Shown here piece by piece: positions 1 to 58,633 of a DNA stretch of 64,000 nucleotides. Position numbers and translations under genes: made by a program. Each line of letters opens with the position of its first letter. Position 1 is the first letter of the stretch. This DNA is from a virus: IMG/VR virus record IMGVR_UViG_3300021226_000189, one strand, 5' to 3'. Under the pieces are notes generated by a model. It did not search any database, was not told the origin of the DNA, and saw nothing but the letters and a program-made list of their open reading frames with translations.

Positions 1-92
1 CGACAGAAACGAGTGCATCTGCAAGGAAGAATTGGCGGGAAGTTCCACAGTGGTAGCCCGATTCAATTAAAAAACTAGACTAAACTCAGGAC

Positions 93-302
93 ATGCCGAA
101 CACAATGAAATTCCAATCGTTCCTACTCACTACTGACCATGTCAATGGCATGGTGAAAGCATTGAAGCAAGCAGGTTTGCGCGTAGAGCGTAATTCTGGA
201 ACAGTCAAAGCTTTCCACAATGACAAGAGAATCTTTGCAGCCTTGCAGAAAGGTCGCAATCAGCCTTGGATTGTTCGCCATGTCGTGGGATTGTTCAATT
301 AA
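93..302 (+). CDS. Early small hypothetical protein (69 aa)
   Basis: ATG 6 nt after TAAACT; stop is the TAA of the next repeat. Confidence 0.8.
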   Translation: MPNTMKFQSFLLTTDHVNGMVKALKQAGLRVERNSGTVKAFHNDKRIFAALQKGRNQPWIVRHVVGLFN

Positions 303-324
303 AAAACTAGACTAAACTCAGGAC

Positions 325-555
325 ATGACCTTACAAATTAAAACATCTTACGTCTCTCCCACGAATACTAAAGGCGCGAAAATCAAAGCCACATTCAATG
401 GCAAGACCGTTTCGGTTCCTTTCAATTACGCTCTGAACTCAGAAGAACGTCATGAAGAAGCAGCGATTGCTTTTGCTGACAAGCATGGATTGAGCATGAA
501 GCTTGGTGCAATCCGCTCTCATGACAAGGGTTATTTTTTCAAAATTGTTTCATGA
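325..555 (+). CDS. Early small hypothetical protein (76 aa)
   Basis: ATG 6 nt after TAAACT; PTNTKGAKIKA motif typical of small phage early proteins. Confidence 0.8.
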   Translation: MTLQIKTSYVSPTNTKGAKIKATFNGKTVSVPFNYALNSEERHEEAAIAFADKHGLSMKLGAIRSHDKGYFFKIVS

Positions 556-570
556 TGGTATGGGAAAAGT

Positions 571-600
571 CCCCTCTCCTTGGTGGTGCTTGGAGAGGGG
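571..600 (+). terminator. Stem-loop upstream of cassette promoter
   Basis: CCCCTCTCC/GGAGAGGGG 9-bp stem; no U-tract. Confidence 0.6.
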
Positions 601-634
601 CAATCCAATTAAAAAACTAGAATAAACTTAGGAC

Positions 635-793
635 ATGCAACATCTTGTATTTATTATCCATGAAAAATTCGTCGCCTATCGGATGGGCAATCAGTATGGT
701 ACGCATCCAATCGGCGATGACACGGTGCAAAGCGTCATCGACTATCTCATGAAAGTCATCAATTTCAAGACAGTAGAAATCATTCACCATTAA
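635..793 (+). CDS. Early small hypothetical protein (52 aa, MQHLVFIIHEKF...), not in ORF track
   Basis: Translated by hand; ATG 6 nt after TAAACT; ends at the TAA of the next repeat. Confidence 0.75.
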   Translation: MQHLVFIIHEKFVAYRMGNQYGTHPIGDDTVQSVIDYLMKVINFKTVEIIHH

Positions 794-815
794 AAAACTA
801 GCGTAAGATTTCAAC

Positions 816-918
816 AGAGCGTCATCTAAGTGCATAGGATTCTGGAATTGGGAGATATTCGTCTAAATTAGGATACCCGACATCAGAGAATGAGAATTTG
901 CAACTCTCCGCTCTACCA
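816..918 (+). ncRNA. tRNA-shaped RNA with extended anticodon arm and 3' ACCA
   Basis: Starts where the ATG sits in other cassettes. AGAGCG(816-821)/CGCTCT(909-914) stem plus ACCA, with D-like, anticodon-like and T-like arms in cloverleaf order. Confidence 0.6.
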
Positions 919-944
919 TTAAAAAACTAGACTAAACTTAAAAC

Positions 945-1133
945 ATGACCAGACGATACACTAACCAACTGTTGGAACTCATTGATAACGGAGTGCTAAA
1001 TGCCGATGACGTTCTTCGCTCATGCCTGAATTACATGTCAGAAGCAGAAGTTGAAGACATGGCAATCAGTGAGGAATACATTGAGGAAGAAGAAGAAGAA
1101 GAAGAGGAGGAGGAGGAAGAAGAAGAGCAATAA
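945..1133 (+). CDS. Early small acidic protein with poly-Glu tail (62 aa)
   Basis: ATG 6 nt after TAAACT; GAA/GAG run; stop in next repeat. Confidence 0.8.
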   Translation: MTRRYTNQLLELIDNGVLNADDVLRSCLNYMSEAEVEDMAISEEYIEEEEEEEEEEEEEEEQ

Positions 1134-1155
1134 AAAACTAGAACAAAATACCGAC

Positions 1156-1263
1156 ATGCTTTTGATTTGTTTATTTTTTCTCACTCTAATTGTTATGGGT
1201 ACGCGCTCCCATCTTCTCGGTGCCATCATCGTTATGGCATGGACTGCATACTTCATGTGTTAA
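1156..1263 (+). CDS. Early small hydrophobic peptide (35 aa, MLLICLFFLTLIV...)
   Basis: ATG 6 nt after CAAAAT; this is the 3' half of track ORF 1051-1263. Confidence 0.65.
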   Translation: MLLICLFFLTLIVMGTRSHLLGAIIVMAWTAYFMC

Positions 1264-1288
1264 AAAACTAGAATAAAATTGGTTCATC

Positions 1289-1474
1289 ATGAAAACGACA
1301 CTACTTATCCTTGCCGCAATCCTTGCAATCCTTGCACCTTTCGGAGCTATCTTTGCAACCTTTCTATGTGAGGGGGAAATCGATTATTTTCAATTCATCT
1401 CTGGAATTGTAGCAATCATCGGTTCTCTCTGCTCTCTGATTCTGATTGTAGAAATTCAGAAGACAGTGAAATAA
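1289..1474 (+). CDS. Early small membrane protein, two TM segments (61 aa)
   Basis: Two hydrophobic stretches; follows repeat. Confidence 0.75.
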   Translation: MKTTLLILAAILAILAPFGAIFATFLCEGEIDYFQFISGIVAIIGSLCSLILIVEIQKTVK

Positions 1475-1496
1475 AAAACTAGCCTAAGATATTGAC

Positions 1497-1742
1497 ATGA
1501 CGAAAACCAAATTTCACAATCAAGATGGTACACTCACTGGTTACTCCTTTGGATGCGGATACGTGGAGCTTTACGGCGGCAAGGGGGAAGCAAGAGCAAC
1601 TCTTTCTCGTGAGCCTAACGACTTTCATGTCAAAGGATTTGACGAAAACGGGAAACATTTTTGGGAAGTCTTTAACCTTGTCAAAGATGCTCGCAAATTT
1701 GCTCGCAAAATGGCGGGGAAACTCACCAACGGTCCCCGATAA
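1497..1742 (+). CDS. Early small hypothetical protein (81 aa)
   Basis: ATG 6 nt after TAAGAT; stop in next repeat. Confidence 0.8.
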   Translation: MTKTKFHNQDGTLTGYSFGCGYVELYGGKGEARATLSREPNDFHVKGFDENGKHFWEVFNLVKDARKFARKMAGKLTNGPR

Positions 1743-1763
1743 AAACTAGCGTAAGATTGAGCC

Positions 1764-1838
1764 ATGCCTGACATTACTACCCTATCCGATAGCGACCTGC
1801 AAGACCTGATCGACTTCATGCAAGGTGTGACAAAATGA
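1764..1838 (+). CDS. Early peptide (24 aa, MPDITTLSDSDLQDLIDFMQGVTK)
   Basis: ATG 6 nt after TAAGAT; translated by hand. Confidence 0.55.
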   Translation: MPDITTLSDSDLQDLIDFMQGVTK

Positions 1839-1882
1839 CGCACCTTGCACCATTAAAAAACTAGCCTAAGATTATTACCGCA

Positions 1883-2056
1883 ATGAAATATTCCATCAAC
1901 TCCACTGTAGTCGTCTCCCCTATAAAAGGTGACGTTTTCTCTTACGAATTTCAAGGAACTGTCATCGACTTCATCAAAGAATCGAATACTTACATCGTTC
2001 AAGATCAAGACGATGACGTTTTTGAAGTCTATGAAGATCAAATCACCGCCTTGTAA
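1883..2056 (+). CDS. Early small hypothetical protein (57 aa, MKYSINSTVVV...)
   Basis: Translated by hand; ATG 10 nt after TAAGAT; stop in next repeat. Confidence 0.7.
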   Translation: MKYSINSTVVVSPIKGDVFSYEFQGTVIDFIKESNTYIVQDQDDDVFEVYEDQITAL

Positions 2057-2077
2057 AAACTAGCCTAAGATATTGAC

Positions 2078-2233
2078 ATGCCTAGATATTCTATCGAAAT
2101 CACGTATCCCTCTGGAATGATCGCTTTCATGTCCTACAATGGGAGAACAGAATGGTGCTATTCACAAGCACGTCATCACATGAAGACATGGGTGCATATC
2201 CATGGAATCAAACCACGCCTTGTAAAAAACTAG
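2078..2233 (+). CDS. Early small hypothetical protein (51 aa, MPRYSIEITYP...)
   Basis: ATG 6 nt after TAAGAT; ends on the TAG inside the next repeat. Confidence 0.7.
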   Translation: MPRYSIEITYPSGMIAFMSYNGRTEWCYSQARHHMKTWVHIHGIKPRLVKN

Positions 2234-2263
2234 AGTAAACTGATACCGTAACCAATACACACC

Positions 2264-2506
2264 ATGTCCAACAAAACTATCATCACCAAATTCGTAAACG
2301 GCGCAACCACTGGCAAAAATTCCACTCGCTCGCTTTTCATTGAGGGGGATACGATTTACTCGTATGGGTATCACTTCCCGCTTGCTCGTCGCAATGCTGA
2401 CGGCACTTTCTGGGTAAATCCTGACAAGTACAGTGTCACCACTAGCAAGCAGCAAGGCATGGTGCGTTGCGCCATTGCTCACTCTAACGGAAAATTTTCG
2501 GCGTAG
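2264..2506 (+). CDS. Early small hypothetical protein (80 aa)
   Basis: Follows repeat with a short leader; YSYGYHFPLA and YSVTTSKQQ motifs. Confidence 0.8.
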   Translation: MSNKTIITKFVNGATTGKNSTRSLFIEGDTIYSYGYHFPLARRNADGTFWVNPDKYSVTTSKQQGMVRCAIAHSNGKFSA

Positions 2507-2517
2507 TCATGGCAAGT

Positions 2518-2547
2518 CCCCCTCTCACTGTGGTAAGTGAGAGGGGG
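2518..2547 (+). terminator. Stem-loop upstream of cassette promoter (second copy)
   Basis: CCCCCTCTCAC/GTGAGAGGGGG 11-bp stem; same AAGT and CAATCC flanks as 571-600. Confidence 0.6.
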
Positions 2548-2581
2548 CAATCCTATTAAAAAACTAGCTTAAACTTGGGAC

Positions 2582-2857
2582 ATGACCGACTTGCAACAAG
2601 CTACTTACTGGTTAAAGACTCATTACAAGTTCCGCCATGATGGTTGGACTAAAAGACAATGCGCTTTGATGATAAGCCATATGCGCCCAGGTTTTTTAGA
2701 CTTCATGATGAAGGTAAATAAGCCTGGCGACTTCGACATAAAAGACGGTTTTTTCCACTTCGGACAAATTCAAACCAGAAAAGACTTGGTGAAGTTTTGG
2801 ATTCGTCAACTAAGACAGTTGAAAAATTCACCACAAAAGACAACAAAACGGAATTAA
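2582..2857 (+). CDS. Early small hypothetical protein (91 aa)
   Basis: ATG 6 nt after TAAACT; stop in next repeat. Confidence 0.8.
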   Translation: MTDLQQATYWLKTHYKFRHDGWTKRQCALMISHMRPGFLDFMMKVNKPGDFDIKDGFFHFGQIQTRKDLVKFWIRQLRQLKNSPQKTTKRN

Positions 2858-2882
2858 AAAACTAGCTTAAACTGATTGCACC

Positions 2883-3023
2883 ATGAAGCCATACGCTAAC
2901 ATCCGACTCACTCAACGCGAGCGTCAAATTCTCGCAACTCGTATCCGCCTGAATCGTAAGCACAACAAGCAACGATTCACCCGTAAAGATGCGCACGACC
3001 TTGCTTTCATCCTTTTCGCGTAA
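2883..3023 (+). CDS. Early small basic protein (46 aa, MKPYANIRLTQRER...)
   Basis: Translated by hand; ATG 9 nt after TAAACT. Confidence 0.7.
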   Translation: MKPYANIRLTQRERQILATRIRLNRKHNKQRFTRKDAHDLAFILFA

Positions 3024-3048
3024 TTAAAAACTAGCCTAAGATACTGAC

Positions 3049-3315
3049 ATGCCTACTACACTTATCACTGGTAACACTTATCCCGTTAAAGACCAAATCA
3101 AAGCTTTGGGGGGGCGATGGAACTCAGTCCGCAAGGGTTGGGAAGTCCCCACTGCTAACGCTGAAGAAGCGCAAGCACTGGTGGAAAGCGCACCACGTTC
3201 AAGCGGTCGCAACGGTCGCGTGTCGTTTGAAGTCCGCACAAGCGGTGGCACGTTCTATCGCAACTATAACGGTCGCTGCGAAGATGCACCGTGCTGCGGA
3301 TGCTGCACGTTCTAA
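3049..3315 (+). CDS. Early protein with C-terminal GRCEDAPCCGCC Cys cluster (88 aa)
   Basis: ATG 6 nt after TAAGAT; N-terminal TYPVKDQIKALGGRW motif. Confidence 0.8.
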   Translation: MPTTLITGNTYPVKDQIKALGGRWNSVRKGWEVPTANAEEAQALVESAPRSSGRNGRVSFEVRTSGGTFYRNYNGRCEDAPCCGCCTF

Positions 3316-3337
3316 AAAACTAGCGTAAGATACTGAC

Positions 3338-3448
3338 ATGTCAATCACTGCCATGCTCAAGCAAGTCCGCGCTTCTCTGAAGCAAGTCAAGTCCGCTATC
3401 CGCAAGGAAAAGCAGATTCAAAAGAAACTCATTAAAAAACTAGCCTAA
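3338..3448 (+). CDS. Early small basic helical peptide (36 aa, MSITAMLKQVRASLK...)
   Basis: ATG 6 nt after TAAGAT; reads through next repeat and stops on the TAA of its TAAGAT. Confidence 0.65.
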   Translation: MSITAMLKQVRASLKQVKSAIRKEKQIQKKLIKKLA

Positions 3449-3460
3449 GATAGCTGCACC

Positions 3461-3661
3461 ATGAAAATCGAACTCGGTAAACGCTACGTGATGAGAAACG
3501 GAAACATCACTCCACCACTCCGTGCCACTAAGTTGAAGGGTACCTTGTACCCGTTCATCGCGGATCTCCCTGATGTCATCGGGATCAGTGAATGGAGTGT
3601 TGAAGGTTTTCGATACTCTGAAAAATATGAATCGGAATATGATCTTATCGCAGAAGCCTGA
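3461..3661 (+). CDS. Early small hypothetical protein (66 aa)
   Basis: ATG 9 nt after TAAGAT. Confidence 0.75.
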   Translation: MKIELGKRYVMRNGNITPPLRATKLKGTLYPFIADLPDVIGISEWSVEGFRYSEKYESEYDLIAEA

Positions 3662-3690
3662 TTAAAAAACTAGCCTAAGATAGCTGCACC

Positions 3691-3873
3691 ATGATTTACA
3701 AAAATCACACAATCCTGATGGCTTGGAGCCTTGACAAAGGCAACAAGGGTTACGATGTCCTCACTAAAGATGGGAGAATCTGGTTTCTCACTCTGTTAGA
3801 GGCTAAAGCTTGGATTGACTCCAAGCAACTAGCGATTGCAAACCACCATAGCCCAATGAACGGGCTATGGTAA
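3691..3873 (+). CDS. Early small hypothetical protein (60 aa)
   Basis: ATG 9 nt after TAAGAT; stop in next repeat. Confidence 0.75.
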   Translation: MIYKNHTILMAWSLDKGNKGYDVLTKDGRIWFLTLLEAKAWIDSKQLAIANHHSPMNGLW

Positions 3874-3898
3874 AAAACTAGAATAAGATAGTGTCGTC

Positions 3899-4123
3899 AT
3901 GAAAATCATTCCACTTCCCACTAAGTTCCACGCTGGCATCGACAAGGGTAAACTTGTCGCTCATGAGTTTGTCTCATTCCTTGTGAATGAGTGCGGTGCT
4001 GTCAATACTACTGGCAAGCCGCTTTACAATACAGCGGTGAAAGACTTGCTGATTGAAGGACGTGCAATCACTCGCTGCGAGATTGACACGTTCAAGTATA
4101 AAGCACACTTCACCTTGGCTTAA
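3899..4123 (+). CDS. Early small hypothetical protein (74 aa)
   Basis: ATG 9 nt after TAAGAT; stop in next repeat. Confidence 0.75.
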   Translation: MKIIPLPTKFHAGIDKGKLVAHEFVSFLVNECGAVNTTGKPLYNTAVKDLLIEGRAITRCEIDTFKYKAHFTLA

Positions 4124-4147
4124 AAACTAGCCTAAGATAACTGCACC

Positions 4148-4432
4148 ATGAATAACATGAACACCACCACCATCACTGCCGCTCACGTCGAAGCTTTCCT
4201 TGCTTTCATGTCCCCTTCAGCGGGACAAGTGATTGAACTCCCGAATGATCGGGTGCTTCTCCACTTCACTGAAGACGGAACAAACCGTGTCGCATGGATA
4301 CCGCAAGGCGCGAGCATTCACCCGATGAACGTGCAAACGATGAAGCTCACGCATTTGAGTGCTGGGGAGCTTGCGATTGTCCTTGACAAATTCAAGAACC
4401 CAAGGACTGCGAAAGTCCTCGGGCATGTCTAA
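4148..4432 (+). CDS. Early small hypothetical protein (94 aa)
   Basis: ATG 9 nt after TAAGAT. Confidence 0.75.
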   Translation: MNNMNTTTITAAHVEAFLAFMSPSAGQVIELPNDRVLLHFTEDGTNRVAWIPQGASIHPMNVQTMKLTHLSAGELAIVLDKFKNPRTAKVLGHV

Positions 4433-4505
4433 CATCTAGCATCTAACGCCCTCGTGTCCTAACGGATGTGAGGGCAATTAAAAACTAAAGTAAGATAGTC
4501 CTGTC

Positions 4506-4763
4506 ATGATTACTGTCGATCAATACAATGCCATCAAGAAGGAACGTGCGCAAGCCGTTAAACTCAATGCTTCCTATCGCATGAGCGGACAAAAGCACAT
4601 GCAAGTCCCTCTCCCTGAGCTTCCCCCTAAGCCTAAAAAATGGGTATTAGAAGATCAAGAAGGTAACTATGAAGGCACCTTCTGGGACAAAGCAGAAGCA
4701 GAAGATTGCGCTGAATATAACGGTTTCAAAATCTTTGAAATGGATTTTGACAAGTTCATCTAA
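4506..4763 (+). CDS. Early small hypothetical protein (85 aa)
   Basis: ATG 9 nt after TAAGAT; last cassette. Confidence 0.75.
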   Translation: MITVDQYNAIKKERAQAVKLNASYRMSGQKHMQVPLPELPPKPKKWVLEDQEGNYEGTFWDKAEAEDCAEYNGFKIFEMDFDKFI

Positions 4764-4784
4764 CATCTAACATCTAACATCTAA
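4757..4784 (+). repeat. (CATCTAA)x4 tandem heptamer
   Basis: Read directly; related run at 4428-4446. Confidence 0.9.
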
Positions 4785-4821
4785 CGCCCTCGTGTCCTAA
4801 CGGATGCGGGGGCGTTTTTTT
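4785..4821 (+). terminator. Intrinsic terminator closing the early array
   Basis: 13-bp stem (with G-U pairs), TAAC loop, T7 tail. Confidence 0.85.
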
Positions 4822-4832
4822 ATGTACTCGCA

Positions 4833-4905
4833 TTCTAGTTTTTAAGAGGGTGTTTTTAAAAACTAGGGGGGGTTGTTAGGATTTGCTTCTAGTTTTTAAG
4901 AGGGT
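4833..4905 (-). repeat. 19-bp direct repeat TTCTAGTTTTTAAGAGGGT x2 (array motif in reverse orientation)
   Basis: 4833-4851 and 4887-4905; forward TAAAAACTAG between them at 4857-4866. Confidence 0.9.
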
Positions 4906-4970
4906 CGGGGGACGGGGGGTTGCCATGGCAAAATAATTTTTTATATAATTCTTGGAAATTCGACTATTGA

Positions 4971-5057
4971 AAAAAATTTTTTTATTATTTTTTCGGGATT
5001 TTTTCCATATTCGCGCCCTCCTCAAAAAATTTTTTTTATTATTTTTTCGGGATTTTT
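4971..5057. repeat. ~34-bp imperfect A/T-tract direct repeat x2
   Basis: AAAAAATTTTTTT(T)ATTATTTTTTCGGGATTTTT at 4971-5004 and 5024-5057. Confidence 0.85.
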
Positions 5058-5058
5058 C

Positions 5059-5190
5059 TTATAGGAATTTCAACCACCTAATGAGTTCTGCTATTTTCAC
5101 CATGCAGTCTCCTATGAGATTCACCCATGCTACCATTGTCCCTATTATCCAGAGGAAAGCAAAAATCTCATGTTTATCGTTTCTATCCAT
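5059..5190 (-). CDS. Small hydrophobic protein (43 aa, MDRNDKHEIFAFLW...)
   Basis: Translated by hand; start overlaps the end of 5183-5461. Confidence 0.45.
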   Translation of the reverse strand: MDRNDKHEIFAFLWIIGTMVAWVNLIGDCMVKIAELIRWLKFL

Positions 5191-8062: not shown

Positions 8063-8123
8063 ATCTTACTCTATTTTTTATGGAAGTCAATAGACTTGAC
8101 AATTATAAAAACTAAGGTATATT
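8063..8123. promoter_or_regulatory. Divergent sigma70-like promoters carrying the array motif in their spacers
   Basis: Plus strand: TTGACA(8096)-N16-TATATT-N6-ATG with AAAAACTAA. Minus strand: TTGACT(8090)-N16-TAAGAT-N9-ATG with AAAAAATAG. Confidence 0.75.
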
Positions 8124-8129
8124 CCAATC

Positions 8130-8342
8130 ATGAACGCAAACGAAGACAATTATTTATTATTCATGGGAGCATTTTATTATCCACAGAGAGCATGGGATGA
8201 TTATGTAAATTCTTATCCCGATCTGGAGTCTGCACGAGAAATAGCCAAATCGAAATTAGAACCATTCGAATTTGATTGGTATCAGATCGTGGATATTCGA
8301 ACCCGATTGATTGTGGAGGAAGGACAAGTTGATAAAAACTAG
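8130..8342 (+). CDS. Hypothetical protein (70 aa)
   Basis: ORF ends on the TAG of an array-type motif. Confidence 0.75.
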   Translation: MNANEDNYLLFMGAFYYPQRAWDDYVNSYPDLESAREIAKSKLEPFEFDWYQIVDIRTRLIVEEGQVDKN

Positions 8343-8356
8343 AATATAATACTGAC

Positions 8357-8722
8357 ATGATCACGATACAAACAATTATTTCAATACTATTTTTTCATTG
8401 GTTTTTTGATTTTTTTCTTCAAACAAGAGAGATGGCAAATAATAAAAGTAAATCCAATTTTTATTTGGGGCAGCATGTGGGACTATATTCCTTCGGCTTG
8501 TTATTAGTGGCAAGCTTTATATTCCCAAATAATGTTATTGAATGTCTATGTTGGATTGGGATCAACGGTGTTGCGCATTTCCTCACAGATTATGTGACGA
8601 GTCGCGCATCATCCGCTCTCTATAAAGAAGAAAGATTTCATGAGTTCTTCTGTATAATTGGGCTTGACCAGCTTATTCACTATGTTACATTATTTGGAAC
8701 TTACGTTTGGTTGAAAAATTAA
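8357..8722 (+). CDS. DUF3307-like membrane protein
   Basis: HWFFDFFLQ, HFLTDY and GLDQLIH motifs; AAAAACTAG-AA-TATAAT-N6-ATG promoter. Confidence 0.75.
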   Translation: MITIQTIISILFFHWFFDFFLQTREMANNKSKSNFYLGQHVGLYSFGLLLVASFIFPNNVIECLCWIGINGVAHFLTDYVTSRASSALYKEERFHEFFCIIGLDQLIHYVTLFGTYVWLKN

Positions 8723-8735
8723 AAAATATGAAATT

Positions 8736-9083
8736 ATGGGAATTAAATTATTCAGTAGTGGGTCATCAACACCACAAACACCTTCTTATTCAGTGGTGAA
8801 TGTTTTTGAAAAAGAAAAATATGTCTCCCCAAATCCAAATCCTTTTAAATTCAAAGTTCTGAAAGAGGAAAGGTTAGACAGGGGGATGATTCTTTTGGTG
8901 AATTATGAAGGTTGCACAACATTCAATGGAAATAAATTACTTTTACTTCGTTGTAAAATCGACCTGAAATATTTTGGAAAACTTGATCCACATATTTTGG
9001 GGGATGATCATATCGTTTGCGCTCGTTTTGAACCTACGGAGCAAGGATGGGAAATGGCGAGAATGGCTGCGAATTGTCTTTAA
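8736..9083 (+). CDS. Hypothetical protein (115 aa)
   Basis: ORF; DPHI...ARFEPTEQGW motif. Confidence 0.75.
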   Translation: MGIKLFSSGSSTPQTPSYSVVNVFEKEKYVSPNPNPFKFKVLKEERLDRGMILLVNYEGCTTFNGNKLLLLRCKIDLKYFGKLDPHILGDDHIVCARFEPTEQGWEMARMAANCL

Positions 9084-9105
9084 AAAACTAGAATACAATA
9101 CTGAC

Positions 9106-16872: not shown

Positions 16873-17118
16873 TTAACAATATTTATCATTAGGATGATCG
16901 ATATCGAATTTTTTCAACAATTCTCTAGCATATTCAGCATCTATACGATGATGTATTACTTCTTGTTCCAATAGTCCAATATAAATAAAACGTTTATACG
17001 ACATTTTACTCGAATAATGTCTCTCATAAATGTTCCTACGACATCGTTCTTGAAATTTAGCTCTCTCTAATGCTTCCAACCAATCTTTTGATAATTCAGG
17101 TAAATTATAATCTTTCAT
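16873..17118 (-). CDS. Hypothetical protein
   Basis: In-frame ATG downstream of mazG stop. Confidence 0.6.
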   Translation of the reverse strand: MKDYNLPELSKDWLEALERAKFQERCRRNIYERHYSSKMSYKRFIYIGLLEQEVIHHRIDAEYARELLKKFDIDHPNDKYC

Positions 17119-27048: not shown

Positions 27049-28230
27049 TTACGTGTTTTCAAAATCGTTTGGATAATAAGGAGACATTCCCATCAAATTA
27101 TCGGTTTTATTAACTGTCGCTAATCCTTTGAAATCTTGGGTCACGCCAAAATAAACAGGAAAATTTAGATCTCCTAAATAATGGAATATCCAAACTTTAG
27201 ATCCGACTTCTGGAATACCGATAGCACCTTTCGGCTGATTCGTCATATTTTGAGGTGCGTATCCAAATGAATAACTATTACATTTCATAGACGATGATTC
27301 TAAAGGATTGGAGAATGGATCATTAACCATAGTAGCTCTGTTTTCGTAAAGACGTGCTGGTGCGCCAGAAACAGTATCAACTGGTTCTATTGGATCTGGT
27401 TTATTTGAATCATTTAATGGTGGTAGTAAAGATGGTGGTTCATCATCACCAGTGTCAATATTATCAAATTGATTGTCGGTATTTTCAGATGCTTCCAATT
27501 TTTCCAAAGAAAATATTTTACCACCCCATGAATTATTTCCACCAGTTCTTCTGTAAATATCAATTGTTTCTGGTAGAGGACCAGTTCTTTTATCATAAGA
27601 TGGAACAGTATCACCATATTGTAATTCGAAAACACCTCTAGATGTTTTCACTCTGAACCAATCATTGTGTTGTAAACCTAATCTATCAGCCAAACTTTTT
27701 GTAACCGCTGCTGATTTACCATCTATCAATCGATTATTTTTATGTCCGATTCCATTAGCACTGTAACTATCTGGTGTGCTATCATCAGCATAGCCGTAAT
27801 TTGATAATTTTATCGGTGGTGAAAATTCGACAACATTCCCCACTGTGTTAAATTCTGTTGGATATTGACCATCTTCGAAACCTTCGGCATAATTACCATC
27901 AGAGATAGTAGAATCTGTTCCACTTCCACTATTATACGATCTAGATCCTCCTGATTCACCCATCAAAGGGTAACACGGTTCAGCCCAAGGAATATTTTCA
28001 ATCATTTCATTGAACAATGAACTATCTGACCAACTATCTCTACCTGGCGTTTTAACTTTAATATCATCTAATTTTTCAAACCATTCTTCGAATGGTTGAT
28101 TAGATAATTCGGGAACATATACTTTAACTCTGTTTAATTTCAGAGGGTCGTCATTTTTTACAACAATTCCCCTATAAAAAGACTCATCTTGTTGTTGCCC
28201 TTGAATACCAGAACTGTTCTTAATAAACAT
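27049..28230 (-). CDS. Baseplate gp5-like OB-fold protein with inserted domain
   Basis: YRGIVVKNDDPLKLNRVKVYVP, PWAEP, IPEVGSKVWIF..GD.NFPVYFG. Confidence 0.8.
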   Translation of the reverse strand: MFIKNSSGIQGQQQDESFYRGIVVKNDDPLKLNRVKVYVPELSNQPFEEWFEKLDDIKVKTPGRDSWSDSSLFNEMIENIPWAEPCYPLMGESGGSRSYNSGSGTDSTISDGNYAEGFEDGQYPTEFNTVGNVVEFSPPIKLSNYGYADDSTPDSYSANGIGHKNNRLIDGKSAAVTKSLADRLGLQHNDWFRVKTSRGVFELQYGDTVPSYDKRTGPLPETIDIYRRTGGNNSWGGKIFSLEKLEASENTDNQFDNIDTGDDEPPSLLPPLNDSNKPDPIEPVDTVSGAPARLYENRATMVNDPFSNPLESSSMKCNSYSFGYAPQNMTNQPKGAIGIPEVGSKVWIFHYLGDLNFPVYFGVTQDFKGLATVNKTDNLMGMSPYYPNDFENT

Positions 28231-28246
28231 AATATTATTTAAGAAA

Positions 28247-31280: not shown

Positions 31281-32165
31281 TTATCGTTTGAACTCCATCG
31301 ATTGAAGGACGCTCAAATAAGGATTATTTTCCTCTACATCATTATTTACCTTTTCCGTGATAACTTTTTGATTTTTCACGAAATCTGGTTTATGTTTACG
31401 ACTTTGTAGAGCCTCTTCTTTGATTACTTCAAGTTGTTTCTTCTCTTGTTTTTCGAAAAGACGAACGGTGTAATCAAAATTTTCTTTGATGAACGACAAC
31501 GATTTGTCGCCAAGAGCTTTTTTCAAGAAGTTCTTTTTAGCTTCTGGATATTTAGAAGTTTTACCTTCAAGGAAAAGTTTAACTTCAGCTTGTTCTTTTC
31601 CTTCGGTGAGGAATTTAAGATTCTTTTTCAACTCAACGTTTTCGCTACGAAGCTTGTCAATCTCTTGTTTACCTTCCATAATAGGACCAGCAACAGATTC
31701 TTTCATAACAGCAAGGTCGATACCCAATACTCTACGAAGATTTTCGAGAACATTAATAGCAGTTTTATTTTTAACTGCTTGTTCGATATCTTTAGCAGGA
31801 ACTGATTCATTCAGGAATTCATCCAGATAAGCACTAACAGATTCGGTCAATTGTTTTTTGAATTTGACGAGATCACCTTGTTGTTCTCTTTCATATTTCT
31901 TAACAACTTTAACCAATTTAGCAGTCTTGTCTCTATCAAAAGCTTCCATCAATTTTTTCATTTTAATAGTGCGGTCTTTATCAACCGACTCCATCAAAGA
32001 TTTTAATTTATTAGCGTAGACTTCATCTTGTTGTTCGAGAGCAGCTTCAACAGCAAGATCAATTTTAGCTTCTAAAGCTTCTTGAATAGCTACAACTGAC
32101 TCGTCGGTAAGACCAAGACTTTTTTGAACATCTTCAGAGAAAAGTTTCTGTTTGTTTTTCTTCAT
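31281..32165 (-). CDS. gp22: Prohead core/scaffold protein
   Basis: Coiled-coil protein directly upstream of gp23. Confidence 0.85.
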   Translation of the reverse strand: MKKNKQKLFSEDVQKSLGLTDESVVAIQEALEAKIDLAVEAALEQQDEVYANKLKSLMESVDKDRTIKMKKLMEAFDRDKTAKLVKVVKKYEREQQGDLVKFKKQLTESVSAYLDEFLNESVPAKDIEQAVKNKTAINVLENLRRVLGIDLAVMKESVAGPIMEGKQEIDKLRSENVELKKNLKFLTEGKEQAEVKLFLEGKTSKYPEAKKNFLKKALGDKSLSFIKENFDYTVRLFEKQEKKQLEVIKEEALQSRKHKPDFVKNQKVITEKVNNDVEENNPYLSVLQSMEFKR

Positions 32166-32202
32166 AATATTATTTAGAGATTTGATATATTTTTTTTATG
32201 AT

Positions 32203-32744: not shown

Positions 32745-33410
32745 TTAGATACTATTGATAAATTTTATGATTTGTTGACGAAGATAAGATTCAACATCAT
32801 GTTTCGGAAGAGTTTTAATCGTCTTTTCAAAATTCTCATAAACTTCTTCGAATGAACCGTCTTGTTCTACGACATAAGTTTTACTTTCTAAAATACCATT
32901 GACAAAAGCTTTTGGATAAGATGGATCGGCAACAGCGTCGATAGCCACTAAATGCATATTTTGAACCAAATTATAATCACGGTTTTCCATCAATTGACCA
33001 AGCGCACGGGTGGACATACCAACCTTAACACCATCATTAATGAGCGCACGGAGGATCTGCCCAGTAGGAGTTGATAAAACTTTAGCTTTCCCTACGAAAT
33101 AATCATCGACTTCATGTAATTCTGTGACCAAGTGACACGCTCTTTCGAGATTCACATCAGCACTTGTGGGGTGATTCAATTCGCCCATCGCTCTACCTGG
33201 AAGCACCATCTCATTAATGTATCTTTGAACTTCTGATCTGGTATCATCAAGTCGATACATTCTTTTATTTTTATTAACAGTATTACATCCGATAAAAGGA
33301 CCTTTAACATAAAGGTTGGATGAACTGTTTCGATTAGATTGCTCTTCAATAACTTCAAAGTTATCAAACACGTCAGGATTCTCTGCGATTAATTTAAGTT
33401 TCAACGCCAT
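32745..33410 (-). CDS. gp21: Prohead protease
   Basis: NKNKRMY, GELNHP, GMSTRALG, DAVADPS..AFVNGILE. Confidence 0.95.
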   Translation of the reverse strand: MALKLKLIAENPDVFDNFEVIEEQSNRNSSSNLYVKGPFIGCNTVNKNKRMYRLDDTRSEVQRYINEMVLPGRAMGELNHPTSADVNLERACHLVTELHEVDDYFVGKAKVLSTPTGQILRALINDGVKVGMSTRALGQLMENRDYNLVQNMHLVAIDAVADPSYPKAFVNGILESKTYVVEQDGSFEEVYENFEKTIKTLPKHDVESYLRQQIIKFINSI

Positions 33411-33443
33411 GATATTATTTATGTTTAATGGATAGTATTTCTA

Positions 33444-41710: not shown

Positions 41711-42007
41711 ATGTCATTTGAGTCTAATAACGGCACAGTCTATTACAAATTATCTTGCGGTGTTCCCACTGTTTCAGATTGGAATCCCAATAGTAATAAC
41801 GGTTCTAGATATTATTATCTTTCCGCAAATGATTTCATCCTTTGGGGGCAAAGCACTATATTTATTCAACCATCAGCCAATAATGGGACTCAATATTATT
41901 TCCCTGTTTGTGAAAAACCAACTGATACTGGGTGGTCTGCTTTGTCAAATAATGGAACTAAATTTTATTATAACTCTGCATTAAATTGTGTTAGCTTCTG
42001 TGAATAA
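41711..42007 (+). CDS. Small late protein with four NNG(T/S)x(Y/F)Y repeats
   Basis: Repeats read in translation; TAAATA-N5-ATG. Confidence 0.75.
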   Translation: MSFESNNGTVYYKLSCGVPTVSDWNPNSNNGSRYYYLSANDFILWGQSTIFIQPSANNGTQYYFPVCEKPTDTGWSALSNNGTKFYYNSALNCVSFCE

Positions 42008-42015
42008 ATAATACT

Positions 42016-42690
42016 ATGAATTTATGGGATTTTATCACACAAAATGCGCAAGCCCTTACTCTAGTTTTTAGCGTTTTAGGTAGCGTTCTATTGTCTATAA
42101 AACGTGTTAGAACGTGGTTGACCGACAAATATAAAAAACATCAGGAATACAACAAATCAAAACACTTGATACCCAGCACTTTACAAGAAATTAAAGAGTG
42201 TGTAATGAATTTAGATGATAGAGTGAAGCGAGTCGAATATGAGATTTCCCCAAATGGTGGTGGTTCCATGAAAGATTCGCTGAATATAGTAAAAGCTGAA
42301 ATTGAAGCTTTGTTTTGGTTGAACCCTAAACCATCCTTTAGAACAACGTCTAAAGGTTTGAATATTCAAGTTAATGAATCTTATTGTCATTTATGTGGAA
42401 CTTCCTCAGAAGAACTACTTAAACAAAATTGGAAAAATTTCATTGAAGATGGAGAACAATTGGACGATTTTATGAGAAGATGGGAATACTCATCAGATAC
42501 AATGTCGCAATATTCTGGAAAATTAAAATTCAAAAATTCTAGAGATGAAAGTTTGGGTGAGTGGGTAATAAAAGTTAGACCATTAGGACCGATAAAAGGT
42601 GGACAGGACTACCTGTGGCATGGATCTATTTTACCATCCGATCAAAAAGCAAGAGATTGTGCTAAAAGCTACAATATTCCCTTAAATTAA
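42016..42690 (+). CDS. Membrane-anchored PAS-domain protein
   Basis: N-terminal TM, PNGGGSMKD, then ..QVNESYCHLCG.S.EEL..QNW.NFI PAS pattern. Confidence 0.7.
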   Translation: MNLWDFITQNAQALTLVFSVLGSVLLSIKRVRTWLTDKYKKHQEYNKSKHLIPSTLQEIKECVMNLDDRVKRVEYEISPNGGGSMKDSLNIVKAEIEALFWLNPKPSFRTTSKGLNIQVNESYCHLCGTSSEELLKQNWKNFIEDGEQLDDFMRRWEYSSDTMSQYSGKLKFKNSRDESLGEWVIKVRPLGPIKGGQDYLWHGSILPSDQKARDCAKSYNIPLN

Positions 42691-51982: not shown

Positions 51983-52745
51983 TATTAATATAGTGGATGT
52001 TCATATCTTCCCTGTAGATATCTTTGTAATAATTATGCGGTAGATCAGCAAACCACACGGAGGGAAAATAACATTCCTTATTCCCAATCAAAGATGCCCA
52101 CCAAGAAAAAGTGGAATTACTCCCAACGATAATATCACACTTACTCATTCTTGTCAACTCTTCAATATCTGTTTTCAATTTTATGATTTGAAAATCATAA
52201 CCATCAAATTCTTGTTGAACTTTTTGTTTACTATCGGTGAACACTTTAATATCACAACCTTTGTATTTTTCAAAAAAATATCTAAAATAATCAGTGTTGC
52301 ATACATGTAATCTTTTAGAAAAATTTAGATAGTCTCCTCTTCTTATATGTATACCAATCTCTGTGTTGCCTTCTTTCTTATCAGAAGTCTCGACTAATGG
52401 TAAATTCAAAAGTGAAATAAATTCATCTTTATCATTTTCAAAATATTTTAATGTTTGAAAATATCCATTCAGAGCAACACTTTCTTCAAAATATGGTATA
52501 GGATCATATCCAAAATTTTTCTCCGAATACATTTCTGAATTATAATCAGTGAAACCGTATTTGAAATTTTTGAATAAAGTATCCCTATAAAATAACGAAT
52601 TATTACCTTGTGTAGCGTGCCAATTTGAAGGATTTAATACTAAATCTTTATCATACTTTTTAGCATAGGAATATCCAGCAGCTACTTGAAATATCTGATT
52701 AGCAACACCACCCATTAAATCTATGTAACATTTACTCATACCCAA
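51975..52745 (-). CDS. GT11 alpha-1,2-fucosyltransferase-like
   Basis: GGVANQIFQ, GYFQ, IHIRRGDY, NSTFSWW. Confidence 0.9.
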   Translation of the reverse strand: MGMSKCYIDLMGGVANQIFQVAAGYSYAKKYDKDLVLNPSNWHATQGNNSLFYRDTLFKNFKYGFTDYNSEMYSEKNFGYDPIPYFEESVALNGYFQTLKYFENDKDEFISLLNLPLVETSDKKEGNTEIGIHIRRGDYLNFSKRLHVCNTDYFRYFFEKYKGCDIKVFTDSKQKVQQEFDGYDFQIIKLKTDIEELTRMSKCDIIVGSNSTFSWWASLIGNKECYFPSVWFADLPHNYYKDIYREDMNIHYINNV

Positions 52746-57766: not shown

Positions 57767-58633
57767 TTATTGTTTAATCATGTGGTGATATTTTTCAATA
57801 TTATTCAACAAATATTTTGGATAAGATTCATCTACTGGAACTAATTCAAGTTTACTTCTTGAAAACGGATCGATATTATTCTCAATATTGAAATTAATTT
57901 TGTCGAGAATATCTTGATTGTTGAGTTCTTGGTGGGAATAAGCCTTTATTTTATTTTTAACGTGATTTTGATCACCCATAAAACTAAAGTGCCACCCTCC
58001 ATTTGATAACTCACAATTTTTTTGCGCTCGTAGTTCATTGAATGAATAGTGTTTAATATTTTTAAATCTACTGATCCGAGAACCTTTCCAATTGTATTCT
58101 TTCAATAAATTTATATAGTAATAATAAGTGGTTTGTTGGAGGGTAAAGAACGGCTCCATATCAATAAACTTATCAACTTTTGATAAAATTTCAGGGTTTG
58201 GGATTTCATCACAATCAGACAATATGATTATATCATCATCTGAACAATCCACTAATCCCCTTCTCACAGATTCTTTTTGAAAGAAATCCCGCCCATAATG
58301 GGGATGTATTTCGGGGATAAATAATTTCGTGTCATTTATAAATTTGTATATATCTTTCAGACATTCCTCATCGAATGATTTGGGAGTATCTATGGTTGGT
58401 AGATTCGTGAAATCTGTTGGAATATCGTTAATTTTAATATGAATTATTTTATGGAGAAATTTGGAAAATCTCTCTTTATTATCTTCGAAAATATAAGATT
58501 TCGGAAGACCACTATGGGTAACATCCGCTTCACACAACACGAAATAATCGACATATTCATCTAGTATATTGAAGCGGAGTTCTAATAAATCTAATTCATT
58601 AAAAAATATAAAACAGTCGTAAATTTTTCTCAT
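57767..58633 (-). CDS. GT17-like GlcNAc transferase
   Basis: YDCFIFFNELDLLELR, SDCDEIP, GGWHFSFMG. Confidence 0.9.
   Translation of the reverse strand: MRKIYDCFIFFNELDLLELRFNILDEYVDYFVLCEADVTHSGLPKSYIFEDNKERFSKFLHKIIHIKINDIPTDFTNLPTIDTPKSFDEECLKDIYKFINDTKLFIPEIHPHYGRDFFQKESVRRGLVDCSDDDIIILSDCDEIPNPEILSKVDKFIDMEPFFTLQQTTYYYYINLLKEYNWKGSRISRFKNIKHYSFNELRAQKNCELSNGGWHFSFMGDQNHVKNKIKAYSHQELNNQDILDKINFNIENNIDPFSRSKLELVPVDESYPKYLLNNIEKYHHMIKQ

Follow-up and report, generated by a model that had tools for sequence, protein, structure and literature searches.

A compact promoter-like repeat as the seam between exchangeable one-gene cassettes in an uncultured T4-like lake phage

Results

The cassette array and its repeat

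The DNA analysed here, the whole 64,000-nucleotide (nt) stretch of the virus record IMGVR_UViG_3300021226_000189 (the window), belongs to an uncultured lake phage of the T4-like type. It opens with an array (1-4830) of 20 small same-strand open reading frames (ORFs) of 24-94 amino acids (aa) and one non-coding cassette, each preceded by a copy of a short repeat; this repeat and the cassettes that it separates are the subject of this report. Pfam matches in the window include the gp23 capsid protein, the gp20 portal, and gp15. The nearest cultured capsid proteins were those of cyanophage gp23, with approximately 32% identity, and the array used as a DNA query against cultured phages returned nothing but chance 40-nt mycobacteriophage matches. 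The phage therefore has no known cultured relative or host. The comparison set included G001 (184 kilobases, kb), the complete 207-kb genome G002 (capsid protein 88% identical; the contig L193 is part of it), G006 (capsid protein 89% identical; L195-L197), G004 (capsid protein 73% identical; L207/L208), and two close contigs with 90-99% identity to the window, L210 (2.4 kb) and L211 (1.1 kb).

With at most two mismatches, TAAAAAACTAGNNTAA occurs 27 times in the window, compared to 2.3 occurrences expected from shuffles. The array holds 21 copies of (T)TAAAAAACTAG-NN-TAnnnT, all on the plus strand between 68 and 4496, with a run of six A in 16 copies and of five A in the other five (C of CTAG at 1746, 2060, 3031, 4127, and 4485). 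When the C of CTAG was taken as position 0 and the positions were counted over 396 copies found in the window and in nine sequences related to it, the conserved upstream part comprised T at -7/-6, A at -5 to -1, C0, T+1, A+2, and G or A at +3. A conserved hexamer lies at +6 to +11 (T/C+6; A+7, 0.97; A/G+9; A/C+10; T+11, 0.98), and a conserved pair, C+17 (0.80) and A+18 (0.86), is retained even where the ATG stands at +21. The ATG was found at +18 in 225 copies, at +21 in 90, and at +20 in 11, and all 20 array ORFs begin with ATG. The copies strongly favour the coding strand, by 89:3 in G001 and by 70:1 in G002. G001 carries approximately 100 copies, with the hexamer mainly TACAAT, TACACT, or TATACT; its TAA and TAG hexamer types are clustered, and its distal array, homologous to that of the window, is of the TAA type. 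The G+C content of the window is 35.5%; it is about 44% in the distal cassette array (1-4800) and about 35% elsewhere in the genome. G001 (at 52-60 kb) and G002 (at 56-68 kb) show the same rise in G+C, and with it the TAA subclass of the hexamer. As an RNA, the motif is unstructured (-2.2 kcal/mol, z 0.12, no better than shuffles), and an Rfam search with it matched no family; sub-threshold matches to L17DE and NsiR1 were regarded as chance.

The features of the array are given here in order; all lie on the plus strand, and an ORF ends on the TAA at the 5' edge of the following copy unless another stop is named. Copy 1 (68-86; six A, TAA-type hexamer TAAACT, ATG at +18) precedes ORF1 (93-302; 69 aa), which has homologues in five related arrays. 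Copy 2 (300-318; six A) leads to ORF2 (325-555; 76 aa; phrog_3199), whose own TGA is followed by stem-loop 1 (553-612; -22.8 kcal/mol, z -2.3), a composite like the PeSL elements discussed below, directly upstream of copy 3 (610-628; six A). After ORF3 (635-793; 52 aa), copy 4 (791-809; six A) is followed by no ATG; the RNA of the non-coding cassette there (816-918) would begin at +18, where the A of the ATG stands elsewhere, and it has an ACCA end just before copy 5 (920-938; six A). The sequence 816-918 folded no better than shuffles. In the equivalent cassette of G001, aragorn calls an odd transfer RNA (tRNA) at +18 (52067-52142). ORF4 (945-1133; 62 aa) has an acidic tail, and its homologue in the contig L209 likewise ends on the motif TAA of that lineage. 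Copy 6 (1131-1149; six A) has the hexamer CAAAAT and hence no third stop; it precedes the hydrophobic ORF5 (1156-1263; 35 aa), copy 7 (1261-1279; six A, ATG at +21), and ORF6 (1289-1474; 61 aa), also hydrophobic. Copy 8 (1472-1490; six A) leads to ORF7 (1497-1742; 81 aa), which ends on the five-A copy 9 (1740-1757), where two frames only are closed, and ORF8 (1764-1838; 24 aa) ends on its own TGA ahead of copy 10 (1854-1872; six A).

ORF9 (1883-2056; 57 aa) and copy 11 (2054-2071; five A) are followed by ORF10 (2078-2233; 51 aa), which ends as ..LVKN on the TAG inside copy 12 (2223-2241; six A, ATG at +34). ORF11 (2264-2506; 80 aa; phrog_7247), the most widely shared cassette, has its own TAG and then stem-loop 2 (2504-2560; -26.8 kcal/mol, z -4.2), directly upstream of copy 13 (2557-2575; six A). 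Next come ORF12 (2582-2857; 91 aa), copy 14 (2855-2873; six A), and ORF13 (2883-3023; 46 aa), whose own TAA lies one base ahead of copy 15 (3025-3042; five A). ORF14 (3049-3315; 88 aa) and copy 16 (3313-3331; six A) precede the Lys/Gln-rich ORF15 (3338-3448; 36 aa), which ends as ..KKLA on the hexamer TAA of copy 17 (3433-3451; six A). ORF16 (3461-3661; 66 aa) has its own TGA one base ahead of copy 18 (3663-3681; six A), in which 33 nt are identical to copy 17. ORF17 (3691-3873; 60 aa), copy 19 (3871-3889; six A), and ORF18 (3899-4123; 74 aa) lead to the five-A copy 20 (4121-4138), on whose TAA ORF18 ends. ORF19 (4148-4432; 94 aa; own TAA) is followed by heptad stops in all three frames (TAA/TAG/TAA) and stem-loop 3 (4430-4482), copy 21 (4479-4496; five A, CTAA replacing CTAG), and the last cassette, ORF20 (4506-4763; 85 aa; own TAA). 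A (CATCTAA)x3 stop run and an intrinsic terminator with a 15-base-pair (bp) stem and T7 (4761-4826) close the array. Stable hairpins stand ahead of only 3 of the 21 junctions, one true terminator is at the array end, and 17 junctions have neither.

Past the terminator, three half-motifs TTAAAAACTAG that lack a -10 hexamer, two inverted and one direct (4835-4899), are followed by G-runs and then by two A/T-rich direct repeats of about 35 nt; this layout of 4835-5060 is kept at 58170-58400 in G001, and the region could be a factor-binding or boundary region. Three further plus-strand copies lie at 8106-9099 (C of CTAG at 8112, 8339, and 9088; hexamers TATATT, TATAAT, and TACAAT). In the first of these, at 8112, the hexamer is preceded by TTGACA at a distance of 16 nt, and the ORF at 8130-8342 ends on the TAG of the following copy.

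Cassette turnover among relatives

A sequence-only reading of the window had taken the repeat for a junction that terminates one ORF, promotes transcription, and starts the next, and had held that cassettes should turn over among relatives if the repeat serves gene capture. The turnover was found: a check of the relatives revealed gain, loss, replacement, and reordering of cassettes with breakpoints inside the repeat. ORF9 and ORF10 are missing from L210. ORF6, ORF12, and ORF17 are replaced in L210/L211 by unrelated ORFs, among them a 41-aa ORF instead of ORF6 in L210 and two other ORFs instead of ORF17 in L211. The order ORF14-ORF16-ORF15 in L210/L211 differs from the 14-15-16 order in the window, the ORF15 placed after ORF16 having 97-99% identity to that of the window in both contigs. 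An apparent ORF13-ORF14 fusion in L210 was rejected as an artefact of a run of N. In the fetched relatives as a whole, homologues were found for only 9 of the 20 array ORFs, and the shared cassettes were partly reordered.

Four of the L210/L211 junctions are exact chimeras of two copies in the window. At the ORF8/ORF11 junction of L210 (junction A), copy 10 forms the left half and copy 12 the right half. Each crossover lies within TAAAAAACTAG(C), at the border of the hexamer with the discriminator that follows it, or just past ATGAAA. On these sequence comparisons, cassette turnover is strongly supported. The identical copies of 20-35 bp would be substrates for homologous recombination, which may delete, insert, replace, and transpose cassettes; the breakpoints are visible in the chimeric junctions, and homologous recombination is the presumed machinery.

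Stop codons supplied by the repeat

Eleven array ORFs had been counted as ending on the first TAA of the repeat (offset 0), and the count was correct (ORF1, ORF3 to ORF7, ORF9, ORF12, ORF14, ORF17, and ORF18). The ends assigned to ORF10 on the TAG and to ORF15 on the hexamer TAA were likewise confirmed, and the other seven array ORFs each have their own stop. The offsets proposed for the three stops, 0, 8, and 13 (frames 0, 2, and 1), hold in the 16 six-A copies; in the five five-A copies they are 0, 7, and 12, so that two frames only are closed, and CAA stands where the third stop would be in the six-A copy at 1131. ORFs end inside the motif in 14 of the 22 window ORFs with a following copy and in approximately 45% of the ORFs of G001 and G002. 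The stop and start parts of the proposed junction are therefore present in the window and two relatives, and its promoter part is predicted. The split among the TAA, the TAG, and the hexamer was 11/2/1 in the window, 27/15/1 in G001, and 28/12/0 in G002. A check run on the six-A genomes, i.e., the window and G001, gave 38/17/2, a significant skew from 1:1:1 (P = 4e-8 for at most two hexamer ends under equal frames).

The upstream gene thus takes its stop from the promoter-edge TAA, less often from the TAG, and rarely from a TAA/TAG-type hexamer. Because the genome is packed, the A/T-rich 5' edge of the putative promoter overlaps the end of the upstream gene, and a gradient of TAA >> TAG >> hexamer would be expected if deeper overlap imposes more motif-encoded C-terminal residues. 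Their number is none for the TAA, 3 for the TAG, which imposes ..(L)-K-N on the protein, and 4-5 for the hexamer, which imposes ..K-K-L-x. The gradient of stop use fits simple compaction. At a newly formed seam, the upstream ORF would be closed by whichever motif stop is in frame. The homologue of ORF10 in L209 (P0001, 80% identical) ends as ..LVKI on its own TAA; a paralogue of ORF12 in L211 stands elsewhere in the array and ends on a hexamer TAA; and of the L210 ORFs that the window lacks, two use the hexamer TAA as their stop and one uses the TAG. The buffering of new seams by embedded stops is a real effect, but it is secondary.

The six-A copies contain AAAAAAC, a classical -1 slippery heptamer. 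After a slip in the TAG frame, translation would merely end on the hexamer TAA and not on the TAG.

Three-frame closure in the window and its relatives

Closure was scored as stops in all three frames within -8 to +11, with letter-shuffled copies as the null. It was found in 15 of the 21 window copies, compared to 4% of the shuffled copies, and is non-random in this window. The proportion was 71% in the window, 36% in G001, and 21% in G002; in G006, L202, L203, and L206 it was 0-6%, i.e., at the shuffle level. Accordingly, the statement that the repeat carries stops in all three frames holds for most window copies and fails as a property of the family, since homologous five-A arrays have closure at 0-6%. 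In G002, the A-run is five in 95 of the 97 copies, and the 5' TAA and the hexamer TAA share one frame. In the distal array of G006, mainly CTAC or CTTC and CAAAAT are found, and mostly the 5' TAA alone is a stop. Furthermore, six-A runs and stop-type hexamers were not associated in G001 (Fisher p = 0.25), and the A-run is 5, 6, or 7 even among contigs 98-99% identical to the window.

Closure requires both a six-A run and a TAA/TAG-type hexamer, and both vary by lineage for reasons unrelated to closure. It is a by-product of these two independent states and not a conserved or selected design. The proposed plug-and-play junction for all three frames is thus not sustained: closure is not conserved, and in the nearest homologous arrays no more than one or two frames are closed. 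Nor was the idea upheld that randomly captured DNA would be closed in any frame, the frame use of 38:17:2 being far from 1:1:1. The general feature is narrower: the 5' edge carries a stop triplet, a -10 hexamer follows, and the ATG stands on or beside the predicted start.

A second kind of three-frame stop was seen in the array. Tandem heptads CATCTAA (once CATCTAG) directly follow the stops of ORF19 and ORF20 (4430-4446 and 4761-4784) and place TAA/TAG in three frames before a hairpin. They also occur at the two equivalent places in G001 (16893-16916 and 18092-18122 of L109); only two heptad repeats are present in L212 and L213. The reverse complement of the heptads carries three heptad-spaced TAGs.

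The repeat as a putative promoter with leaderless starts

The repeat has the layout of a sigma70-type -10 hexamer (+6 to +11), a 6-nt discriminator, and a pyrimidine/purine start dinucleotide, and the ATG lies 6-9 nt downstream of the hexamer with no purine-rich box between. No Shine-Dalgarno sequence was found ahead of any ORF in the window. From this arrangement in the sequence, we infer promoter activity and messenger RNAs (mRNAs) that are leaderless or have a 3-nt leader. The host RNA polymerase would start at +18 and yield one leaderless or nearly leaderless mRNA per tiny gene, with no Shine-Dalgarno sequence; this would account for the presence of a separate copy of the repeat at every gene. 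The tRNA-shaped RNAs at 816 in the window and in G001 begin at +18. In the 396 copies counted, no -35 box is conserved at -28 to -34 from the predicted start, and a minority of copies have TTGACA or TTGACT 16 nt upstream of the hexamer. The extended -10 pattern (TGn) is absent as well; T-17, A-16, and G-15 are conserved, and -14 and -13 are variable. The T, the five or six A, and CTA(G/A) form a lineage-specific upstream element.

In related lineages, the upstream elements are different, and the layout from the -10 to the ATG is constant. The G004 junction reads TAATTAAAACCGAAC-TAnAAT-N6-ATG, that of L217 reads TGATACACACTAAGATATACT-N9-ATG, and that of L209 has ATAAAAACCAG or CCAA and hence no TAG. 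The elements are TAATTAAAACCGAAC in L207/L208, ATAAAAACCAG in L209, TGATACACACTAAGA in L216/L217, and TAAAAACTAC or CTTC in L195-L197. Each of them opens with a stop triplet that the upstream ORFs use.

The RefSeq record of T4 has no promoter features annotated, and a literature search returned no account of leaderless T4-like phages or of three-frame stops in phage promoters. Elsewhere in the window, the T4-type late-promoter core TAAATA-N4-6-ATG was observed 23 times, compared to 6.3 expected, for example, at 28228-28241, 32163-32176, and 33408-33421 on the minus strand and at 42005-42018 on the plus strand. No Shine-Dalgarno sequence was present at any large window ORF, and the late mRNAs of the phage look likewise leaderless.

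Origin of the array ORFs

The repeat had also been proposed as a route for de novo gene birth, for which no support was obtained. Most ORFs stay open far longer than shuffled interiors would (P of approximately 0.003-0.05), and several, including ORF19, ORF10, and ORF14, have homologues in lineages with other junction motifs; the homologue of ORF19 behind a different junction motif in L216/L217 is 65% identical. Among the 20 array ORFs, few matched PHROG families and none matched Pfam above the cut-off, with one weak DUF5710 match below it. Since the ORFs are long, the proteins ordinary-looking, and homologues present behind other motifs, the evidence suggests real genes that circulate as a pool. 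The one ORF that might be young is ORF15; an exhaustive search of 1.84 billion representatives gave no match to it, its 36 aa being a query of little search power.

Discussion

We consider it probable that the repeat is the compact early promoter of this phage clade and, at the same time, the seam between its one-gene cassettes, with three-frame closure as a by-product. The general idea of shuffling cassettes has already been published for T4-type phages as PeSL (PMC2839356). PeSL (promoter-early stem-loop) cassettes are known from the T4-type phages RB49/phi1, T4/PST, and KVP40/nt-1 (Arbiol et al. 2010, PMC2839356; Comeau et al. 2014, PMC4122927). In these elements, which recombine, an upstream stop codon lies in an A/T-rich stretch at one end and the next start codon at the other, with the promoter between them (PMC2839356). 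Between close relatives, indels, replacements, and reordering were reported there, with breakpoints in the elements, one of them between the -10 and the ATG (PMC2839356). The array described here is similar in having repeated early-promoter elements in a variable, ORFan-rich T4-type region, in the stop codon of the upstream gene at the A/T-rich 5' edge, and in the L210/L211 breakpoints within the elements, of which junction C lies between the -10 and the ATG. However, the element here measures about 30 nt from stop to ATG compared to about 100 in PeSL, has no conserved -35 or Shine-Dalgarno sequence, and places its ATG at the predicted transcription start; a stem-loop stands at only 3 of the 21 junctions, and the stops lie inside the conserved core and not in a loosely A/T-rich flank. 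The repeat is a putatively leaderless, -35-less, and mostly stem-loop-less variant of PeSL cassettes.

In promoters of leaderless mRNAs, a -10 hexamer lies about 7 nt ahead of the 5' AUG. Examples are lambda cI transcribed from PRM, many genes of Actinobacteria and Deinococcus-Thermus, and middle and late genes of the Thermus phages phiYS40 and P23-45. The repeat resembles them in that 6 nt separate TAnnnT from the A of the ATG, there is no ribosome-binding site, and ATG is the sole start codon. The T4-type late core of this phage (TAAATA-N5-ATG) seems to share the layout. In contrast to those promoters, the repeat recurs roughly 100 times in each genome as a single unit, the phage being T4-like, and its reading as a promoter is a prediction from sequence.

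If closure had been selected as a plug-and-play design, captured DNA would become a closed, expressed gene, and the repeat would be a route to gene capture or de novo birth; this seems quite unlikely to us. The excess of closed copies over the shuffled ones (15/21 vs 4%) and the use of all three stops in the window would suit it, as would the three hexamer-TAA ends and the one TAG end added by L210/L211. The ORF12 family ends on different motif stops by context, ORF10 on the TAG here and on its own stop in L209, heptad stop runs in three frames precede two hairpins, and ORF15 is without relatives beyond the close lineage, all of which can be read the same way. However, homologous five-A arrays have closure at 0-6%, G006 has a stop at the 5' TAA only, other lineages are without a TAG, and the length of the A-run is polymorphic (5, 6, or 7) between contigs 98-99% identical. 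Moreover, the TAA-type hexamer occurs also in distal arrays where it gains no third frame, the frames are used 38:17:2 and not 1:1:1, and the ORFs, far longer than chance, are in several cases common to lineages with other motifs. A stretch of about 16 nt with a stop in each of frames 0, 1, and 2 recalls the three-frame stop cassettes engineered into cloning vectors and gene traps; the natural stops differ in being parts of promoter elements that are not kept together in relatives. It is also unlikely that multi-frame closure itself was selected in this leaderless lineage through two independent devices, the promoter junction (TAA, TAG, TAA) and the (CATCTAA)n heptads, each of which has three-frame stops within 17-22 nt. 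If it were true, ribosomes in any frame on read-through transcripts or new seams would be released before the next start or terminator, and the seam would be frame-agnostic and favour the capture of foreign ORFs.

Action of the motif at the RNA level, by processing or by termination-reinitiation on polycistronic early transcripts with stops about 25 nt before the ATG, is very unlikely. The array has no -35 and no intrinsic terminators inside it, so read-through transcripts must exist; the stop-to-ATG distance is constant at about 25 nt, and some tRNA genes of G002 begin at +12 after the hexamer, as if the motif were a cleaved leader. On the other side, conservation falls on a -10 hexamer and on a C/A start dinucleotide at canonical spacing, a canonical TTGACA stands at 16 nt in some copies, the motif RNA is without structure or Rfam family, and for half of the ORFs the stop lies well ahead of the motif. 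An integron-like array moved by site-specific recombination is extremely improbable and was effectively refuted by the lack of a recombinase and of a hairpin. With integrons it shares same-strand, small single-gene cassettes separated by a repeat and their high turnover, whereas no tyrosine recombinase (PF00589) was found in the complete G002 or in G001, all control genomes being matched; the repeat forms no attC-like hairpin, each cassette has a promoter-like motif in place of one promoter per array, and the crossover points vary within the shared motif, as for homologous exchange. A possible, though doubtful, refinement of the promoter explanation is that TTAAAAAACTAG is the site for an early or injected lineage-specific phage protein that recruits the host polymerase without a -35. 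The upstream element varies by lineage while the -10-to-ATG layout is constant, the -35 is not conserved, and inverted half-motif pairs without a -10 hexamer at the array end are conserved in G001. However, no candidate factor was identified, the complete G002 gave no match to sigma70 region 2 and none to a T7-type polymerase (a search without an informative control), and the lineage differences could equally reflect different hosts.

Several observations weigh against the repeat as a sigma70-type promoter with a start at +18 and closure as a by-product. A generic sigma70 scan for -35/-10 pairs misses the motif for want of a -35. Three tRNA genes of G002 (57791, 59643, and 59738; in L193) begin at +12, right after the hexamer, and a start at +18 would therefore truncate them. 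At these genes, the motif may be a recombination scar only, or the overlapping TAGnnT may act as the -10. This TAGnnT at +1 to +6 could be an alternative -10 elsewhere as well, giving a leader of 6-9 nt; its implied start at +12/13 is compatible with the G002 tRNAs. We ranked it lower because C+6 is present in many copies, the occasional -35 suits the second hexamer, and C/A at +17/+18 is conserved. In addition, the hexamer stop is used by four genes in the close lineage (ORF15, two in L210, and one in L211), and the heptad stop runs before hairpins leave some room for selection on multi-frame closure.

The promoter-and-seam reading corrects the idea of a seam built for closure in all frames, since closure varies with one base of the A-run and the hexamer subclass. 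It shows how tightly promoter, stop, and start can be compressed into one recombining seam of about 30 nt. The exact chimeric junctions provide a clean natural example of promoter-mediated gene shuffling in an uncultured lake phage clade, and specialists would find it surprising if 5' ends confirmed that each genome of a T4-like phage holds the approximately 100 leaderless genes predicted here.

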